Assembly (NCBI RefSeq): GCF_048403405.1
Contig: NZ_CP183129.1
Origin: Escherichia coli
Lineage (GTDB): Bacteria > Pseudomonadota > Gammaproteobacteria > Enterobacterales > Enterobacteriaceae
Length of the DNA stretch: 64,000 nt
Strand: one strand, 5' to 3'
Shown here: one piece after another, positions 3,461-34,525 of the stretch
Layout: every line of letters starts with the position of its first letter
How positions within the stretch are numbered: the first letter of the stretch is position 1
Made by a program: the position numbers and the translations under genes
Notes under the pieces: model-generated
What the model saw: only the letters and a program-made list of their open reading frames with translations
Databases searched by the model: none
What the model was told of the DNA's origin: nothing

Positions 3461-3983
3461 AATTGAAGTTCTTGAACCGCTATATTTGGCTCCGGTATTT
3501 ACTCCGTGAGTGGTATCCTAGGGCCCTGTGCGGAGGATTTCATTGTAATGCTCATACGCTGTAGCCAGGTTCATGTTTCTTCAGCAAGGCCATTTGGGCT
3601 AGTGGCCTGCTCCCCATTGCTCCACACAAAAAATTATTCGTTACGTCCGCTCCTGGCACACAGTAGACATCGAGAGACAGCTTCGAGCGATAATCAGAAG
3701 TTCGCAATTGTCATCACCCAAAAGTTGTTTATAACTTGTAGCAAGGTGCATTGTTCAACGTTGAGTTGGTCAAGTTCAGTTAATGATCGGACGATATCTC
3801 ACTCTGCCCAATAGCACATCTGTTTTACGGGAAGTGAGTTTCAACATCACGAGCTTTGTTAGTAAACATCACTTATTTATTAAGAATATGTTTCATAGAA
3901 CAGGGCCGGAGAACTTAATTTCATATTCTAAAAAGTGATGCGCAGACATCACTTTAAACTTTTTAAAGCGCGAAAACCCTACG

Positions 3984-5248: not shown

Positions 5249-5776
5249 TTATTGCGGCATTTCCGGCCATTCGGGATTTGCAGGATCCACACGACTGACC
5301 AGAACGCTGTAGCGTTCCCATGCTTCCAGTCGGCTGCGTTCCTCATCCGTCGCCATATTCAGCCTGACAGCGCGTTCCAGCGGCAAAATCACGGATTCAG
5401 CTTCGGAAAGTAAAGCTGCCTTTTGTGATTCTGCCTGTTGCTCCTGTTCATCTGCCGTATAAATCCGCTTAATCACGGCACCATCCTTAAACATCCATTT
5501 ACCTGAGTCATCAGCACGTCGGTTGGAGGTAATATCAGGAACCTCGACAACGCTGAAACCTTCAGGGTTAAGCGTTGAAGCATCTCTGGTGATGCCGACA
5601 ATTATATTATTCTCGTCGTAAACAATCTTTATCGTGTCTTCCTGAAAATTACTTACTTCCTCATACCAGTTTTTTCCCTCTTCGGACCATAACCAGATAA
5701 CATCAAAATTTTTTGTCAGTTGATATTGGGCAACAGTTTTTGGATTACCCGCAGTAATATTTTTTAAATGCTGCAT
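5249..5776 (-). CDS. G: Tail fibre assembly protein gpG
   Basis: 175 aa, [19 protein letters not shown]..., immediately downstream of H as in P2. Confidence 0.85.
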
Positions 5777-24797: not shown

Positions 24798-27083
24798 TTA
24801 TGTCCACTCCATTACTGTTGAGAATCCCGGCCACTCATCAATGACCGGATACGTGAATTTTTTCCCGCCATAATTTATGGTCGCTCCCCGAGCCAGCGCC
24901 TCAAGCTCCCATCGCTGTGGCCTGATACCGTTCTGAGCAAGGTCAACGCGGATACGGGTAATTTGCATTCGTTCCGACCGGGTCAGTCTGGCCGATGGCG
25001 CTATTTCATGCGGTTTTAACGGGCTTCCGTTTCTTTGCTGACGGTTTGGTCTTCTCAGACCGTGTTTTAATGCACCTCTGAGCGCCCTCACGACCTCCTG
25101 GTCATTCCATTCGATAACACCGTCATCTACCAGATTAAGCACTGCTACGGCGTGTTCAGAAGGCGTGGGAGCCGGTGACGAAGTATCACCACCGGTGAGC
25201 TTTCCACAGTTATTGACAGGACTCCGAGGCGCGGCGATGCCGCTTTTTAAAGTCAACGGCTCAACGACCGGAACTTTCGGCACAATGCGCCAGTCCGTCG
25301 TTCTGGTGATATGAATATGACGCGTGCCGAGATGCGGCGCGTAAATGCCGACCACTCTCTCGACTTCTTCCTCGTACTCGTTAACGTCATCCGACGGGCT
25401 ACGGGCGACCCTGACAGTCTGACAATCGCGCGGGACATTTGCCCCGCCCTGCGCGCTGATATACAACGCAAAATCACCACTGTCTGCGGCGGCGCGTGCA
25501 GCCTCGACGCGTTCGTCAAACTCATCAGCAATGCTGACGCCGCGAGGCAATTTGCGTAGTTCACGGTAAGCCCCCATTGTCGGCAGGCCAACCGTTTTAA
25601 ATTGCGGGATACGCCACGTTGACGCCCATGCGGTAACAGCCGCTGCAGTGTCTTTCAGCGGCCTGCCGGTATCGTTATCGAGCTGACCATCCAGTGCATA
25701 GCCGTCGATATTTTTTGAGATGTATTTCGCGATATATCCCGCAGCACCGCCCCGGTTAAGGTGTTTCGCCTGAAAACGGTTTCGCGCGGCTCCTCTTTCG
25801 TCGCCATCCTCTTTGAGCGCATAGCGACGCATGATTTCGATAATCTGGTTACGCTGGCGTGGATTACAAAAAAGCATCATATGCCAGTGCGGCGTTCCGT
25901 CGTGGTGTGGCTCGACGACTCGCAAACCGTAGACCTGTAAATCATTATCCTTGAATGCCGTGCGCATCAGGCTCCAGATACGGCAGAGATAACGCTGCGC
26001 ATCCTTCGGATTAAATGCCTCATCATTCCAGCCGTGATTAAGCTGCACGGTTTTACTTTCTCCTTTTCCGACCTGACGTGTCGGGTGATACTTTGACGGC
26101 GCGGTCAGCGTGATAAACATCCCCACATCACCCTCTGCGGCGGCGTAACGCTCAATACCGGCGATGGTGTTCATCAGCTCCATCCGGCGAATTTCAGGAT
26201 TAGAAATACTGCCCATCACCTTACTGATAAGGTCGATGCGCTCGCCGGTTTCCCTGTTTTCGAGGTCACACGATTTAAGAAATTCCAGATTTGCCTGGCG
26301 GCGTGCACGCACATCACGAATGGCGTGTTTACTGGCATAAGGAGAACGATCTTTATTGACCTCCCCGACAGCAATCAGTAACGCCTCATGCCAGCGCATA
26401 CGCTGGCCTTTAAGCTGATGAGTCCACCACTCATCGTTAAACAGGCGGGCAATGGCAGAATATGCCTGCCTCGTGGTCATCTGTCCTTTACGGTATTTTT
26501 TCCAGTAGAGCGGGGAAATATTGAAAGCACGTGCAGCGCCAGCAACATGACTATACAGGTGAGCCTGCGCCTCATCCGTAAACAGCGATTCTTTTTCGCC
26601 ATGCGCATCCACCCAGGCATCGCTGAGTTCCTCATACATCATGAAAAGCTGCGATGAGATACGGGCGGCAAACTTTTTCAGCTCCTTGTCATTCATTCCA
26701 GGCAGGCGCGCATAGTGGTCACGCTCTGCCAGAAACAGCAACGACGCGTCGGTGTTCATTTCATGGCGCTGATTCACGCGCTCAATGCGCGGCCATAAAC
26801 GACGCTGAAAAGTGGATGTGAGGAAATAAAACCCGTGTACCGGGCTTTTATTGCGCCGGATGTAGTCATAGCGTGAAGTAAACAGCGAGCGCAAAAAGTA
26901 AGGCAGGCGGTTAATCGTGGATAAAACCCCTTGCACCTGACGCATCTCGTCACGTGTAAGGGGTCTTTCGCGCCCGACGGCCTCGCGTGGCGCGTTCCAT
27001 GCATAAGCACCGGTAAACGTCTTACCGGTGCCTGCGGCAAATGCTGACGGAGGGACAAAACGCCCGGAGGCTTTAACGGCCAT
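24798..27083 (-). CDS. A: Replication initiation protein gpA (rolling-circle nickase)
   Basis: ATG at 27083 (MAVKASGRFVPPSAFAAGTGK...), 761 aa; the supplied ORF extends to an upstream TTG. Confidence 0.9.
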   Translation of the reverse strand: MAVKASGRFVPPSAFAAGTGKTFTGAYAWNAPREAVGRERPLTRDEMRQVQGVLSTINRLPYFLRSLFTSRYDYIRRNKSPVHGFYFLTSTFQRRLWPRIERVNQRHEMNTDASLLFLAERDHYARLPGMNDKELKKFAARISSQLFMMYEELSDAWVDAHGEKESLFTDEAQAHLYSHVAGAARAFNISPLYWKKYRKGQMTTRQAYSAIARLFNDEWWTHQLKGQRMRWHEALLIAVGEVNKDRSPYASKHAIRDVRARRQANLEFLKSCDLENRETGERIDLISKVMGSISNPEIRRMELMNTIAGIERYAAAEGDVGMFITLTAPSKYHPTRQVGKGESKTVQLNHGWNDEAFNPKDAQRYLCRIWSLMRTAFKDNDLQVYGLRVVEPHHDGTPHWHMMLFCNPRQRNQIIEIMRRYALKEDGDERGAARNRFQAKHLNRGGAAGYIAKYISKNIDGYALDGQLDNDTGRPLKDTAAAVTAWASTWRIPQFKTVGLPTMGAYRELRKLPRGVSIADEFDERVEAARAAADSGDFALYISAQGGANVPRDCQTVRVARSPSDDVNEYEEEVERVVGIYAPHLGTRHIHITRTTDWRIVPKVPVVEPLTLKSGIAAPRSPVNNCGKLTGGDTSSPAPTPSEHAVAVLNLVDDGVIEWNDQEVVRALRGALKHGLRRPNRQQRNGSPLKPHEIAPSARLTRSERMQITRIRVDLAQNGIRPQRWELEALARGATINYGGKKFTYPVIDEWPGFSTVMEWT

Positions 27084-27348
27084 ATGAGCCAAAAGCCTCT
27101 GAACAACGCTTGCTGAGTTGCTCAACCTGCGCGTTTAAATCAGCAAAAGACTTTGCGCTTCCGGTCAGAATATCGTGATGCATCAGGCCGGAAACGAGCT
27201 GGCTTAATTTCGGGTAATAACCAACCACCGCCAGCCATTCCTGACCGGCGTTTTTACCGCTTTCCGCTCTCTTTTTCTCGTGGAGAATAAACTGAAAGCT
27301 GTCACTGGTAACGACATAACGTTCGCCAATTTCAATACGAATGCTCAT
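27073..27348 (-). CDS. Small early protein at the P2 orf83 position
   Basis: 91 aa, position only. Confidence 0.5.
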   Translation of the reverse strand: MSIRIEIGERYVVTSDSFQFILHEKKRAESGKNAGQEWLAVVGYYPKLSQLVSGLMHHDILTGSAKSFADLNAQVEQLSKRCSEAFGSYGR

Positions 27349-27569
27349 GCCATTCTCCGGTAATGTTTGTTTTTTGCTTCAAAGACTGACTGACAGGAAA
27401 CACAACGCGTGGCTGACGGATAAGCCGCACGACGGGCAGCAGGTATTGGCGCGTCACACTCTTCGCAAACCAGCGCAGAAGCACCGCAATGTTTTACCCT
27501 TGCCGCGTTAATCTGGCGCTCCAGTAATTCAGCCTGTTGTTCCTGAATAAAATCTACGTTGTCCGGCAT
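27345..27569 (-). CDS. TraR/DksA-type C4 zinc-finger protein at the P2 orf82 position
   Basis: 74 aa with C-x2-C ... C-x2-C pattern (CGASALVCEECDAPIPAARRAAYPSATRCVSC). Confidence 0.65.
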   Translation of the reverse strand: MPDNVDFIQEQQAELLERQINAARVKHCGASALVCEECDAPIPAARRAAYPSATRCVSCQSVFEAKNKHYRRMA

Positions 27570-27571
27570 TA

Positions 27572-27871
27572 TCAGCTCCTTTTATCGTTAAGTTTCCTGG
27601 ATACATCAGCGCAATAACTGGCAAGTTCTGTCGTTAATTTTGTCAGTTCATCCACTGAGGAAATTTGCTTGTGGAATACAGCGCGTTTAACAAGTAAATT
27701 GACCACATCAGACAGGAGGTTTAATTCATTCTGATAAATCGCGATAACAGATTCAGTGATGTCGCGTTTTTCTTTATCAAGACAAAGTTGAATAAGAGAC
27801 AAATCGCCATTTTTCATAACGGCGATTTTTAAGGCGTTATTCAGTAATACAACTGAATGAGAACAGGACAT
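27572..27871 (-). CDS. Small early protein at the P2 orf81 position
   Basis: ATG at 27871 overlapping upstream stop (ATGA); position only. Confidence 0.45.
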   Translation of the reverse strand: MSCSHSVVLLNNALKIAVMKNGDLSLIQLCLDKEKRDITESVIAIYQNELNLLSDVVNLLVKRAVFHKQISSVDELTKLTTELASYCADVSRKLNDKRS

Positions 27872-28095
27872 CAAAGTACCTCCCCGCGAGACAATCCGAT
27901 ATTGTGAAATTTTTCCGACTCCTGACTGAGCAGCTCGACTATCTCCACGCGGGATAACTCCGCCTTTGTGATATGGCGAATCATGGCGTCAAGATGAGAA
28001 GAAAAGCGCGTCGCAGCGTCGGCCTGTGCTTCGGTTCTGGCCTGTTGCAGCAGTAATGCGTATTTACCGCACTGATTTTCAGAAACTGTATGCAT
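27871..28095 (-). CDS. Small early protein at the P2 orf80 position
   Basis: 74 aa, position only. Confidence 0.45.
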
Positions 28096-28158
28096 GACTT
28101 TCTCCAGGCAAAAAGAAGCCCCGCACGATTAAGTGCGTTAAAAACTCTGGTTAATTAC

Positions 28159-28659
28159 TTAATGCAGATATTGCTCTGGTTTTACCGACGTCAGAATTGT
28201 CGGTGCATACTCAAACAGACTGAATAATTCACGTAATGCACGGAATAAAGCATCACGCCAGTAACATGATTCTTCATTAATTCGCCAGTATGGCTGGTTA
28301 AATTCTTTTTCTGTCAGTCGTGCGTGCATAAATAAAGTGCGACGCTGACTGACTGTTAAAAAACTAATATATGCATACTCACTTGCGCCAACCTGACGGC
28401 GTTTTGAGAATGCCCCACGCAATTCATCAATTGCACAAACCAGCCGTTCACGTTCGACGTCGTTCATTTCTTCAAAACGCATCGTTGCGTGACGCTGTTT
28501 TAACTGCGCATGGAAGCAAACCGTTAGCCGTTCACGTTCCATCATCTGATTATAATAATCGCATGTCTCCTGCCAGCGAGGGACGGCCAGATGCTTACCA
28601 ATTATCCGGCGCATAGCTGCTGGCTGTTTTTCAACAAGATTGAGCGTCATCACTGTCAT
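28159..28659 (-). CDS. B: Replication protein gpB
   Basis: 166 aa, same length and position as P2 B. Confidence 0.7.
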   Translation of the reverse strand: MTVMTLNLVEKQPAAMRRIIGKHLAVPRWQETCDYYNQMMERERLTVCFHAQLKQRHATMRFEEMNDVERERLVCAIDELRGAFSKRRQVGASEYAYISFLTVSQRRTLFMHARLTEKEFNQPYWRINEESCYWRDALFRALRELFSLFEYAPTILTSVKPEQYLH

Positions 28660-28913
28660 TTCCAGACCCTCCGGCTTTTCAGAAAGGTCAGAGCCTTCTT
28701 TAACGGACTCTGTTTTTTGGTGCGGATAATGATTCCCTTACGCCCCTTACCGTGGGTAATGGTGAAGTCAATCGCCCTTGGGCTTTCGTTACGCAATAAC
28801 TGAGCAATACAACGAGGCTCGTTCATCCTTTCCACCTTAAGCCGCACGGCCATGTCTTGATTTGCTGTAACTAATGCGATTTTTCCAGTCATGCCATTAT
28901 GTCGGAGCTTCAT
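28656..28913 (-). CDS. Small early protein at the P2 orf78 position
   Basis: ~85 aa, position only. Confidence 0.45.
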   Translation of the reverse strand: MKLRHNGMTGKIALVTANQDMAVRLKVERMNEPRCIAQLLRNESPRAIDFTITHGKGRKGIIIRTKKQSPLKKALTFLKSRRVWK

Positions 28914-29193
28914 CAACTAGCTGGGCTGCGTACTTGTCCCACTCACGGCGATTAATCCATAACTCAGCATGACCGCCCGGCTTTAATGGGTCCGTCATAT
29001 AAAAGGCTGGTAACTTGCCTGCTTTCGCCATTTCAGCAACAGCGCGAGGCGTCTTACCGATGTAAAGAGCAAAACCCTCTTTCGAGAGCAAATCCGACGG
29101 TGCGGCTGCAAGTTTGATGTCACATTTTTTACTTTTTGTGAGATCAGATACTTTTTCTCCAACATCGTTATTCATTTCTGATCCAATACTCAT
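28897..29193 (-). CDS. cox: Cox (excisionase / early repressor of Pc)
   Basis: Motif FALYIGKTPRAVAEMAKAGKLPAFYMTDP resembles P2 Cox HTH region; ATG at 29193 with GAGGAT upstream; first gene of the early operon, divergent from C. Confidence 0.7.
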   Translation of the reverse strand: MSIGSEMNNDVGEKVSDLTKSKKCDIKLAAAPSDLLSKEGFALYIGKTPRAVAEMAKAGKLPAFYMTDPLKPGGHAELWINRREWDKYAAQLVDEAPT

Positions 29194-29297
29194 TTTGATA
29201 TCCTCAACTTTGGTGCCATTCAACCAGAGCTATTTGAAGCCGCTCTGCGTTGTTCTGGCGTGTCGCATACAACATAAATTACGAGATACGACAATTC
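29194..29297. promoter_or_regulatory. C/cox intergenic switch region (expected divergent Pe and Pc promoters and operators)
   Basis: Position between divergent cox and C; promoter elements not individually mapped. Confidence 0.5.
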
Positions 29298-29609
29298 ATG
29301 TCAAATACACAAATCACATCTCAAGCAGAGAAACTCGCACTTATTCGGGAATCAGAAAGAATGACAAGGAAGCAAGTTGCTGAATTAACTGGAATTAACT
29401 ACAACACCTATGCTGGATATGAGCAGGGAAAAGTAAAGATGTCTTTTGACGCAGGTATGAAATTTTTCAAGCCAGAAAGATTTCGCAAGTACCGTGACTG
29501 GTTCATGTTTGATGAAACTGATCCCGCTGGCGGACAAATAGCCCCGGCGCTCGCGCACATTGGGCAAGACTCAACAACCTTGCACCACTCAGACCAAAAG
29601 ACTGGCTGA
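29298..29609 (+). CDS. C: Immunity repressor C
   Basis: ATG at 29298 (MSNTQITSQAEKLALIRESE...); C-terminal GQIAPALAHIGQD...SDQKTG resembles P2 C. Confidence 0.8.
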   Translation: MSNTQITSQAEKLALIRESERMTRKQVAELTGINYNTYAGYEQGKVKMSFDAGMKFFKPERFRKYRDWFMFDETDPAGGQIAPALAHIGQDSTTLHHSDQKTG

Positions 29610-29702
29610 CGATTTATTCAGCATATGTGTGCAGTAAATGTACGAAAGAAAATTGCATTAATTTTCAAGTAGTAGAAGTAAACAGCGTCATCGGAGGGCT
29701 TT

Positions 29703-30698
29703 ATGTCTATTAAAAAGCTCGATGATGGTCGTTATGAAGTGGACGTCAGACCGCAGGGTGCAGATGGAAAACGTATCAGGCGGAAATTTAAAACTAAAGG
29801 TGAAGCTCAAGCATTCGAACGTCATGTGCTGGTTAACTACCACAACAAAGAGTGGCTGGAGAAGCCAGCCGACCGCCGAACTCTTACAGAGTTGTTAGGC
29901 AGATGGTGGATATATCACGGAAAATCACATGAGCGTGGAAATATTGAACGGGGGCGTTTGACGACAATAATCGCCAAATTTGCAGAAATGGGGGTGTCCA
30001 GAGCTGACCAGTTAACAAAGAAAACGATAACTGATTATCGAGTTGTAATGATGAACGATGGTCTAAAACCAGCCAGCGTAAATCGGCATCTGGCAATAAT
30101 GAGCGGGATGTTCACCAAGTTAATTGACGCCGGTGAATACCACTCTCACAACCCGTTCCGTGAGGTTAAGCGGTTACGTGAAGCTGTTACAGAAATGGCT
30201 TTTTTGTCCAGTGAAGAGATTACGCGGCTGTTATCCATGCTTGATGGTGATGAGTTAAATGCAACTCTGGTCTGCCTTTCTACTGGTGGACGCTGGAGTG
30301 AAGTGTCTAATTTGAAAGCTGAACACATCATTAACCAGATGGTTACGTTTATGAAAACTAAAAACGGAAAGCGCAGGACAATTCCCGTTTCGCAGGACCT
30401 GATTAAAAGGATCAAGACCAAAAATTCAGGCAGGCTTTTTAATGCCAGTTACTACAAAGTGCGTAACGCTCTCAGGGAAGTAAAACCCGATTTACCTGAC
30501 GGACAAGCAGTACATGTTTTGAGGCATACATTTGCCACACATTTTATAATGAATGGAGGTAACATAATCACATTGCAGCGCATCCTGGGTCATTCTAACA
30601 TTCAGCAAACTATGACCTACGCACACTTTGCACCGGATTTCTTACAAGATGCTGTGACTCTTAACCCGGTGTCAGGAATGTCCATAATGCGTCCATAA
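29703..30698 (+). CDS. int: Tyrosine integrase (P2 Int family)
   Basis: 331 aa; MSIKKLDDGRYEVDVRP..., HxxR and C-terminal catalytic region (LRHTFATHF...GHSNIQQTMTYAHF); last prophage gene before the host junction. Confidence 0.9.
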   Translation: MSIKKLDDGRYEVDVRPQGADGKRIRRKFKTKGEAQAFERHVLVNYHNKEWLEKPADRRTLTELLGRWWIYHGKSHERGNIERGRLTTIIAKFAEMGVSRADQLTKKTITDYRVVMMNDGLKPASVNRHLAIMSGMFTKLIDAGEYHSHNPFREVKRLREAVTEMAFLSSEEITRLLSMLDGDELNATLVCLSTGGRWSEVSNLKAEHIINQMVTFMKTKNGKRRTIPVSQDLIKRIKTKNSGRLFNASYYKVRNALREVKPDLPDGQAVHVLRHTFATHFIMNGGNIITLQRILGHSNIQQTMTYAHFAPDFLQDAVTLNPVSGMSIMRP

Positions 30699-30729
30699 AC
30701 CAGAGTTAACTAGAGCCAATTGAAGCGAT

Positions 30730-31527
30730 ATGAGTAATTTAACTAATTGTAATACAACAGAAAATACCGCTACGGCGGGGGCTACCAAGTCAGTTATTGG
30801 TCGCATTCACTCCTTTGAATCCTGTGGAACCGTAGACGGCCCGGGTATTCGCTTTATCACCTTTTTCCAGGGCTGCCTGATGCGCTGCCTGTATTGTCAT
30901 AACCGCGACACCTGGGACACGCATGGCGGTAAAGAAGTTACCGTTGAAGATTTAATGAAAGAGGTGGTGACCTATCGCCACTTTATGAACGCTTCCGGCG
31001 GCGGCGTTACCGCATCCGGCGGTGAAGCAATCCTGCAAGCTGAGTTTGTTCGTGACTGGTTCCGCGCCTGCAAAAAAGAAGGCATTCATACCTGTCTGGA
31101 CACCAACGGTTTTGTTCGTCGTTACGATCCGGTGATTGATGAACTGCTGGAAGTAACCGACCTGGTAATGCTCGATCTCAAACAGATGAACGACGAGATC
31201 CACCAAAATCTGGTTGGAGTTTCAAACCACCGCACGCTGGAGTTCGCCAAATATCTGGCGAACAAAAATGTGAAGGTGTGGATCCGCTACGTTGTTGTCC
31301 CAGGCTGGTCTGACGATGACGATTCAGCGCATCGCCTCGGTGAATTTACCCGTGATATGGGCAACGTTGAGAAAATCGAGCTTCTCCCCTACCACGAACT
31401 TGGCAAACACAAATGGGTGGCGATGGGTGAAGAATACAAACTTGATGGTGTTAAACCACCGAAGAAAGAGACCATGGAACGCGTGAAAGGCATTCTTGAG
31501 CAGTACGGTCATAAGGTAATGTTCTAA
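30730..31527 (+). CDS. pflA: Pyruvate formate-lyase activating enzyme, with prophage-junction-derived N-terminal extension
   Basis: From residue 21 ([22 protein letters not shown]..., radical-SAM CxxxCxxC) it matches E. coli PflA as remembered; the canonical ATG is AAG here and the frame opens at an upstream ATG (30730). Confidence 0.9.
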
Positions 31528-31539
31528 TTTCCCCGTAAA

Positions 31540-31569
31540 GCGGCAACTTTTTTGAGTTGCCGCTTTTTT
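31540..31569 (+). terminator. Rho-independent terminator after pflA
   Basis: GCGGCAAC-loop-GTTGCCGC followed by TTTTTT. Confidence 0.8.
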
Positions 31570-31736
31570 ATTCCGCTCTGCATAAATAATTCAGAGCTCT
31601 ATTTCTAACGCCCTTACAGCACAGCTTCCAAATGTATTACCCAAACCGCCAGTATATGTCCTGCGGCTTACGCGCATTTCTCGATTATGTAAAAACGGGT
31701 CAGATCTGCCAGAGTCAGCGTCACCGACCACAATAA

Positions 31737-33167
31737 TTATTTACCATTCGCTTTACGCGCCAGCAGCGGGAATATCAGTCCTAATCCTACCAACACAAAC
31801 GGCGTTGCAACATTCAGCGCCAACTGGAAGGTCCACTCTGCAGTGAAGGCTTCCATTTTCGGGAAAATACCAGTCAAACAGGCAAAGGCGGTAAAGGCAA
31901 AACACCAAATCCCGACGGTCATTGCCAGAGGCTTATTACGAATAAAGACATATTCTGGTTTATATTTCTGCGCCAGGCGAACGACTGCAATAAATGCAAC
32001 AAATACCCATAAATAACGCAGCGGCATCACTACCGAATTAAGGTTCAACAGCCATTTATAGAGATTGTTCATATCACCAATGCCGAGAGTCGGTAGCATT
32101 ATCAGAATCGCCACCAGCACCAGGGTCAGAAAATAGCCATTAACGGGCGTACCAGAAGCGTTGGTACGACATAAACTGGCTGGAATATATTTGCTGTCAG
32201 CATCGCCTAATAACACTTTAAGCGGCGCATCAATCGAGAATACCAGCGCAGCTACTTGTCCCAGGGTATTCGCAATGGCATAAATCACCATTAAAGTATT
32301 ACCCATGTTGTAATACTCGCCCAGCTTCTGAAAGGCGTAATACTGACCGTTAGTCATTAAGTCATCCGGGATATTACGCGAGTCAAACATCATCCCCATC
32401 GCCAGTGAGCCCAGAATGGCACAAACCGCAACCATCACCGCCAGGCATAACATCCCTTTTGGAAATTCTTTTCCTGGGTTGCGCGTTTGATTAACGTAAG
32501 GAGAAATCTTCTCTGCTCCGCCAACCGCGAAAACCAGCATTGAAATAGTGGTAATGTAGGTAAAGTCGATATGAGGAATGAACGTTTCCCAGGTAATGTT
32601 TGTGGTCGCAATATGCACTTCAGTAATTGCAGGCGCGGTTACCGCCATCGCCACATACAGGAGCGACATAACAAACATCGCAATCCCTGCCACAGAACCG
32701 ACGATTTTCAGCGATTTCATACCGCGTGAAGCAACCCACATAAAGAAGATAAACAGCACCAGCGTTAACCCCTGTAACGCTACGACTGAATATTCTTTGA
32801 TTAACGAACCGTCGCCTTTCATCGCCCAACCGAGCGCAATCAGTATTGCCTGGGGTTTTTGTGCCAGATAGGGAATATGCACTACCCAGTAGGTCCACGC
32901 GGCGAGGTAAGCCAGTCCGGGTCCCATCGTGTGTTTAATCCAGGTACTGACCCCGCCCTTCCCATCTTTGAAGGTCGAGCCTAACTGACCAACAATTAGC
33001 GCATAAGGTGTGAAATAGAGCGCAAAGATAAACACCCATGAAAAAACAACCACCAGCCCCTGGTTGGCGTAGTTATTAACAACGTTGCCAAAACCCCAGA
33101 CAGTGATAAAAGACATCAGCGCAATGTTGTACCATCGCAGCTGTTTTTCCTGAACATTCCCAGCCAT
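31737..33167 (-). CDS. ycaM: Putative APC-family transporter YcaM
   Basis: Start taken at MAGNVQEKQLRWYNIALMSF (476 aa); polytopic membrane protein. Confidence 0.8.
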   Translation of the reverse strand: MAGNVQEKQLRWYNIALMSFITVWGFGNVVNNYANQGLVVVFSWVFIFALYFTPYALIVGQLGSTFKDGKGGVSTWIKHTMGPGLAYLAAWTYWVVHIPYLAQKPQAILIALGWAMKGDGSLIKEYSVVALQGLTLVLFIFFMWVASRGMKSLKIVGSVAGIAMFVMSLLYVAMAVTAPAITEVHIATTNITWETFIPHIDFTYITTISMLVFAVGGAEKISPYVNQTRNPGKEFPKGMLCLAVMVAVCAILGSLAMGMMFDSRNIPDDLMTNGQYYAFQKLGEYYNMGNTLMVIYAIANTLGQVAALVFSIDAPLKVLLGDADSKYIPASLCRTNASGTPVNGYFLTLVLVAILIMLPTLGIGDMNNLYKWLLNLNSVVMPLRYLWVFVAFIAVVRLAQKYKPEYVFIRNKPLAMTVGIWCFAFTAFACLTGIFPKMEAFTAEWTFQLALNVATPFVLVGLGLIFPLLARKANGK

Positions 33168-33376
33168 AGACAAATCCTTCGCCAAAATTAAAGGGGCATC
33201 TGTAAAACGAGGGATTATGCGCGGCAAATAAGAAGTGCGGAAATAGCGAAATGCAAAATTATAACCTGCTGCACATTTTATTTTTAAACGAATAAAATTT
33301 GGAATAAAGCAAGTCAGATAGAAGAAACAAAAAAGCAGAGTGTGAAACAGTAAGTTCACACTCTGCTTGAATTCAT

Positions 33377-34525
33377 TTACACGTGAGCAACGGGTTTCGG
33401 CGTATGACCGGCGTTGCGAAGCAGCATCAGCAAATAGATAAACGATACGCTGGCGATCATGATAAACAATAAATTATCGGAGAAATTCTGCATTAGCATG
33501 GCAGTAAATGACGGGCCAAGCAGACTTCCCACGGTATAGCTCAACAGTAAGGCCTGGTTCATCGCCACCAGTTGATGATGTTCAACTTTCTCGCAAGCCC
33601 ATGCCATCGCCACCGGATATAGCGTAAAGCCAGCGGCACCGAGGATGAATAACGCTGGGGCCATCGCCGCCTGGCTAAGCATCGCGATACTGCCGAGAAT
33701 GACGACAAAGACCTGAACACGCAACACCAGCAGTCGACCAAACTTATCCGCCAGACGTCCAATCGGCCATTGTCCAAGGATACCCGCACTGACCAGTACC
33801 GCCATCCAGAAACCAATGCTGGCATTGCTCACCCCTTTGTGATTGAGGTACAGCGGCATCAGGCCATATAGAGATCCCAGAACGATTCCTGAGATAATGC
33901 AGCCATTCACGCCAAGCCGCGCCTGACGGAGTTTTAGCATTGACGTAATTGACGTCGCATCATGGTTTTCAGCCTGCTGATTCAGCACACGCGTAAACAA
34001 CAACGGTAAGATCCCTGCCAACGTCAAACCTGTAACCCACGGCAATACGGACATCAGCTCGGTTGAAACTTTGCTGACCAGTAACTGGCCTAAAAACGTT
34101 CCCACGTAATAAACCATCATATACGCAGCAAGCAAACGCCCACGGTTACGTGACGTCCCACTGCACATCAGCGCGCTCTCAACAACCACCCAAATCATGG
34201 CACAGCCGACGCCGGCGACAAAACGCCAAGCCAACCAGCTCCAGAATCCAATCATTAGACCAAGGCCGGCACAGCCAGCGGCAAAAATGAAGGAGGCCAG
34301 ATAATAGCTGCGGTTAAAGCCAATGCGCTTAATGACATACCCTGTCAGCAATGTACCGACCAGGTTGCCGGTAAAATAGGATGAGCTGACAACGCCTACC
34401 TGCCATGTGGACATGTGTTCCTGGGCGAGCCAAAGCGGTACGAGTGTATTTAACACTGCGATCGCCAGAGTCAACAAAAGCAGGCCAGACAGCAAAAGCA
34501 TGACAGGCCGGGTATACGTGGACAT
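33377..34525 (-). CDS. ycaD: MFS transporter YcaD
   Basis: 382 aa, multiple TM helices. Confidence 0.8.

Follow-up and report, generated by a model that had tools for sequence, protein, structure and literature searches.

The short pflA-ycaM spacer of an Escherichia coli lysogen as the probable scar of an old ycaK-ycaN deletion

The spacer between pflA and ycaM and the relics within it

In the window, the 64,000-nucleotide stretch of Escherichia coli DNA analyzed here, only a short spacer separates pflA from ycaM, and a prophage ends at the start of pflA. The locus raises the question of whether the genes that stand between pflA and ycaM in K-12 have been lost from this interval and, if so, whether the prophage had a part in their loss. 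Both neighbors are intact: pflA (30787-31527, + strand) has its native length, and ycaM (31737-33167, - strand) encodes an APC-family permease of 476 aa (Pfam AA_permease_2). The open reading frame call for ycaM gives 540 aa from an upstream GTG, and the 476-aa RefSeq form contains the permease domains. The two genes are convergent, with their stops 209 bp apart (spacer, 31528-31736), and beyond ycaM lie ycaD (33377-34525, - strand), ycaC, and then dmsCBA. The arrangement is shared with other strains, since 30700-33400 is 100% identical to strain TUM14771 and 30400-31900 is 100% identical to GN02461, MS 69-1, and others.

Right after the pflA stop, the spacer contains a stem-loop and U-run that form a predicted intrinsic (Rho-independent) terminator (31537-31566, + strand; 13 pairs, 6 GC, with a T-run), and the spacer hairpin has a folding energy of -20.3 kcal/mol (z = -5.6 vs shuffles). 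A reading of the sequence alone had described about 210 bp and a clean pflA terminator between the convergent genes, and both agree with what we measured. The pflA terminator hairpin is also found 3' of pflA in K-12, O157, and E. albertii. Scanning 30600-32000 against Rfam returned a single match, to L20_leader, which at 21 bits vs a gathering score of 58.7 we took as chance. We also set aside a promoter-like minus-strand site within the ycaN remnant described below, since the frequency of such sites equals chance expectation.

In K-12 (RV308), the order is pflA, ycaK (-), ycaN (+), and ycaM (-), and 1,680 bp separate the pflA stop from the ycaM stop. The interval in the window falls short of this by 1,471 bp, and the K-12 genome confirms the gene order and the span of about 1.5 kb for ycaN and ycaK that the sequence-only reading had given. 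The K-12 locus (b0899-b0902) and the window have in common the flanking genes, the pflA terminator hairpin, and a ycaN 3' end that abuts the ycaM stop, whereas K-12 carries a full 591-bp ycaK and a full 909-bp ycaN with a 99-bp divergent promoter region, about 1.47 kb of which are missing from the window. The ycaK product is a flavodoxin-fold NAD(P)H oxidoreductase, and that of ycaN is a LysR-type regulator.

Local alignment to K-12 shows homology until about 31583, resuming from about 31624. The 40 bp in between (31584-31623) were at one point read as unrelated filler, as blastn gave no K-12 alignment for them, but a global alignment, taken together with the E. albertii spacer, shows that they consist of diverged pflA-ycaK spacer and ycaK stop region. 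All 209 bp of the spacer are assigned to K-12-homologous sequence. Downstream of the terminator, 31567-31613 is a diverged relic of the pflA-ycaK intergenic spacer that aligns, with indels, to positions 3787-3824 of our K-12 locus (L002); O157:H7 has this stretch in nearly identical form, and it can still be recognized in E. albertii. It is followed by the deletion junction zone (31614-31634), where TTACAG represents the last codon and stop of ycaK on the complementary strand and the bases after it align to either the ycaK 3' end or ycaN codons 261-270. The rest of the spacer is psi-ycaN (31626-31736, + strand, 111 bp), the last 36 codons and stop of the LysR-type regulator gene, whose in-frame translation, FQMYYPNRQYMSCGLRAFLDYVKTGQICQSQRHRPQ followed by a stop, is identical to K-12 YcaN residues 267-302 at 35 of 36 amino acids. 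The LysR_substrate domain of YcaN covers residues 91-290 (Pfam), and psi-ycaN is a fragment of that domain. The 36-aa fragment gives no Pfam match, falling short of the HTH_1 and complete LysR_substrate domains by which we define a LysR regulator gene; judged on its sequence, psi-ycaN is a pseudogene relic rather than a gene. The expectation that ycaK and ycaN would both be absent therefore holds for ycaK and for most of ycaN but not for the last 36 ycaN codons.

Since relics of ycaK and ycaN persist at the junction, we conclude that the difference reflects a deletion here, as had been proposed, and not an insertion in K-12. Very probably, a single old deletion of about 1.47 kb left this spacer as its scar. 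The event would have removed ycaK entirely, together with the promoter region between the divergent ycaK and ycaN and the first ~266 ycaN codons. It would have spared the pflA terminator, the pflA-ycaK spacer in its now decayed form, the region of the ycaK stop codon, and the ycaN tail at the ycaM stop. The 209-bp spacer contains no IS element or IS end at the junction, which is what an IS-mediated deletion would be recognized by.

The breakpoint is ambiguous over about 20 bp (31614-31634), where two alignments fit. One places the junction at TAG/CACAG (K-12 L002 3830/5297) and adds a further 10-bp loss. The other needs one event between imperfect direct repeats in K-12, CTACCATATC (L002 3836-3845) and CTTCCAGATC (5312-5321), which form a 10-bp direct repeat with an 8/10 match and with the copies 1,476 bp apart. 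The TAG/CACAG placement with its secondary loss came first and was dropped as the sole reading in view of this repeat and of the gap-free collinearity with E. albertii. Because the spacers of the two species align through the junction with no gap, one event between the repeats would be at least as likely as the two-step placement. The deletion may have proceeded by illegitimate recombination or replication slippage at the short imperfect repeats, a mechanism that their 8/10 match leaves tentative.

Distribution of the junction among E. coli genomes

We counted the arrangements among 5,426 complete E. coli genomes using junction-spanning probes short enough to prevent joining across the indel, and a genome was scored as junction positive when at least 80% of the 501-bp junction probe was covered in one piece. 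The ycaK-ycaN pair was present in 3,341 genomes (near full length in 3,318), including K-12, BL21(DE3), O111:H8 and O78:H4 strains, and GN4143. The window-type pflA-ycaM junction was found in 1,021 genomes, with O157:H7 and O145 among the carriers. In 1,047 genomes, ycaM was also missing and pflA faced ycaD, and about 17 genomes, CUPS04, EC96, and GF43 among them, had other arrangements. The locus thus shows what is expected of a segregating deletion allele, namely, a gene relic, an intact version in conspecifics, and a junction common to many genomes. A strain-level deletion, as first suggested, is too narrow a description of a junction that recurs in 1,021/5,426 genomes and in E. albertii NBRC 107761. 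For the same reason, the chance that faulty assembly or collapse in one genome produced the short spacer is negligible, as the junction appears in complete genomes from many laboratories and platforms.

The O157:H7 and O145 junction carries the same scar as the window (206/209 bp identical in O157:H7) and the same 111-bp relic. In strains sharing the junction, RefSeq annotates this relic as a partial pseudogene, named either "hypothetical protein" or "LysR family transcriptional regulator." Unlike the window, the O157:H7 and O145 strains have no prophage at pflA and keep the native pflA ATG and upstream region. We regard the missing genes as ordinary lineage variation, a presence/absence polymorphism that public annotation already shows. 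The alleles look lineage-structured, as we assume from the known phylogroups of the carrier serotypes. The deletion probably had a single origin and then spread by inheritance or by homologous-recombination transfer, one of several alleles at the pflA-ycaD interval.

The larger deletion allele, seen in the urinary isolate MS10711 and an O2:H6 strain, affects the same interval and has lost ycaK-ycaN as in the window. It differs in that ycaM is lost too, the ycaN relic is absent, and the pflA terminator stands directly before the ycaD terminator hairpin. We observed this pflA-ycaD junction at L004 3744-3839, and the interval 3' of pflA is multi-allelic in E. coli. The remaining arrangements are diverse. 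In CUPS04, both ycaK and ycaM are truncated by an IS1-mediated deletion (L006 4026-5418), unlike the window junction, and EC96 has IS1 insertions. In GF43, a 14-kb island replaces ycaK-ycaN (L090 5210-19248) and carries bcsA, an IS-disrupted bcsB, bcsC, and GGDEF and EAL genes; a ycaN relic was looked for beside ycaM in this genome and was absent.

The prophage at the start of pflA

Positions 1-30786 of the window are all prophage, beginning within the tail genes (tail tube, 172-690; tail sheath, 703-2007), and judging from GN02461, the ogr-side prophage end, beside pflB, would lie about 5 kb past the window start. With 98.9% identity over 27000-30786, Escherichia phage pro147 is the closest to this prophage, and homology to prophage-free strains begins at about 30786. 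The integrase gene of this P2-like (Peduovirus) prophage (29703-30698, + strand), an open reading frame annotated as phage integrase in strains of identical sequence, lies outside the deletion, and pflA is located directly downstream of it in the same orientation. The prophage att core, GTCAGTTATTGGT (30789-30801, + strand, 13 bp), overlaps pflA codons 1-5. GN02461 has the same 13-bp core at its junction on the pflB side, and the pro147 record has it at each end.

At the int-side junction of the lysogen, the native pflA ATG reads AAG (30787-30789), and the frame is open back to 30730, where a phage ATG serves as the annotated start of a 265-aa PflA with a 19-residue phage-encoded leader. This 19-aa leader is part of the deposited pro147 phage genome. 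The native pflA promoter, ribosome-binding site, and a 7-codon stub are left beyond the other prophage end, next to pflB and over 30 kb away (L087 5832-6150). It is plausible that pflA is instead transcribed by read-through from a prophage lysogenic promoter. A search of the available literature for a described pflA att site or a phage-led PflA found nothing relevant. PhiECO1 of E. coli HS (PMC3448106, Table 1) was considered as a phage of the pflA site and rejected, as in the HS genome (L091 8947-40199) it is a 186-type P2-like prophage between rcdA and ybjL whose site and integrase differ from those of the pflA-site phage.

Since the prophage and the deletion lie less than 1 kb apart in the window, the loss of ycaK-ycaN could have been caused by, or concurrent with, the integration or imprecise excision of a P2-like prophage at pflA, and the sequence-only reading had raised a link to the integration event. 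However, an intact 741-bp pflA separates the att core from the deletion, so that the deleted segment is away from the att site. The int-pflA junction occurs in 404/5,426 complete E. coli genomes, and its frequency is similar on the three main backgrounds: 219 of the genomes with ycaK-ycaN (6.6%), 95 of those with the window-type junction (9.3%), and, by subtraction, about 90 of those that also lack ycaM (about 8.6%). Hence, 926/1,021 junction carriers are prophage-free at this site, the very situation in which the initial reading would have accepted simple lineage variation, and the 219 genomes that have the prophage and keep ycaK-ycaN intact include GN4143. The junction is also present in E. 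albertii and in prophage-free O157:H7; strain F7508 has the deletion without the prophage, and its scar is 206/209 identical to the window.

A version in which the carriers are cured lysogens fares no better, as pflA in O157 and K-12-like strains still has its native start and the native DNA upstream. The prophage is slightly more frequent on the deletion background (9.3% vs 7.0% elsewhere; odds ratio, 1.36; Fisher p = 0.014), but these genomes are clonally related and non-independent, and therefore the odds ratio is what clonal sampling would yield and no sign of a mechanistic link. Together, these findings make it highly improbable that the prophage had a part in the deletion, and the suggested connection with integration can be given up.

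Age of the deletion and consequences of losing ycaK-ycaN

We surveyed outgroups by a PflA scan with a tblastn screen, taking one genome per species for 80 Enterobacterales loci. At most of these loci, pflA directly faces ycaD, and ycaM lies between the two in E. albertii, several Citrobacter, Kluyvera, and Pluralibacter. The distribution of YcaN homologues beyond E. coli and Shigella is patchy, and none of the 80 outgroup loci has ycaK-ycaN beside pflA. This pattern could suggest that the short arrangement is ancestral and that ycaK-ycaN was inserted in K-12-like lineages. However, an insertion would be unable to create the in-frame ycaN domain/C-terminus fragment and the ycaK stop region that we see in the spacer, and the pflA-ycaM spacers of Citrobacter and Kluyvera (50-60 bp) hold no ycaN relic. 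In addition, the full pflA-ycaK-ycaN-ycaM order is present in a distant relative with 77% DNA identity to K-12 (L088 101-1693), and Pseudocitrobacter has ycaK-ycaN in the same interval. We thus consider an insertion in K-12-like lineages very unlikely. Since the intact order occurs in the 77%-identical relative and the pair in Pseudocitrobacter, the intact arrangement is old; the ycaK-ycaN module is likewise old, though patchily distributed. In Pseudocitrobacter corydidari, ycaK-ycaN (79% aa) lies between pflA and ycaD (L089 7326-8930) with no ycaM, and the interval has an extra pair of LysR and choloylglycine-hydrolase-family genes.

The scar itself extends beyond E. coli, as seen in one E. 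albertii genome, that of the type strain NBRC 107761. Its 215-bp pflA-ycaM spacer is collinear with that of the window through the terminator, the decayed spacer, TTATAG, and the ycaN relic. It is more decayed, with 169/203 aligned bases identical, a frameshift, and the last ~45 bp rewritten, and the locus is 87% identical overall. If a scar common to two species had a single origin, either both alleles must have persisted for a long time, or the intact one must have been re-imported later, or an old transfer between species must have taken place. The same deletion could instead have arisen repeatedly at short repeats, such as once in each of the two species. In K-12, the deleted segment is indeed flanked by an imperfect 10-bp direct repeat, and the interval is deletion-prone, as seen in the larger deletion of 1,047 genomes and the IS1-mediated deletion in CUPS04. 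Nevertheless, the E. coli and E. albertii spacers run gap-free across the junction and have their left-spacer indels relative to K-12 in common, and a repeat that matches at 8/10 is a poor basis for exact recurrence, all of which makes repeated origin unlikely.

The deletion may predate the E. coli/E. albertii split, a dating to which we give somewhat less than an even chance, or the scar may have passed between the two species long ago. With a deletion older than the split, the two alleles would form a trans-species presence/absence polymorphism, or the intact module would have been re-imported to K-12-like lineages by homologous recombination, in a multi-allelic replacement hot spot downstream of pflA. 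The pflA-ycaD interval is a hot spot of replacement and deletion.

With the missing genes unconnected with the prophage, a false lead is removed; in other respects, the deletion matters little, and the prophage at the start of pflA is the more interesting feature of the two. The deletion takes out a typical divergent regulator-target pair. Knockout of ycaN in K-12 is reported to lower ycaC expression, raise that of ycaD and focA, and give a negative formate-utilization phenotype (PMC9068703). Carriers of the deletion would lack YcaN control of neighboring genes, with the targets kept and the regulator gone. The pflA-ycaD interval is a possible lineage marker, simple and multi-allelic. About 38% of complete E. 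coli genomes (2,068/5,426) are naturally without YcaN, and therefore K-12-based regulatory maps of the pflA-ycaD neighborhood are not transferable to O157:H7-like or uropathogenic lineages.
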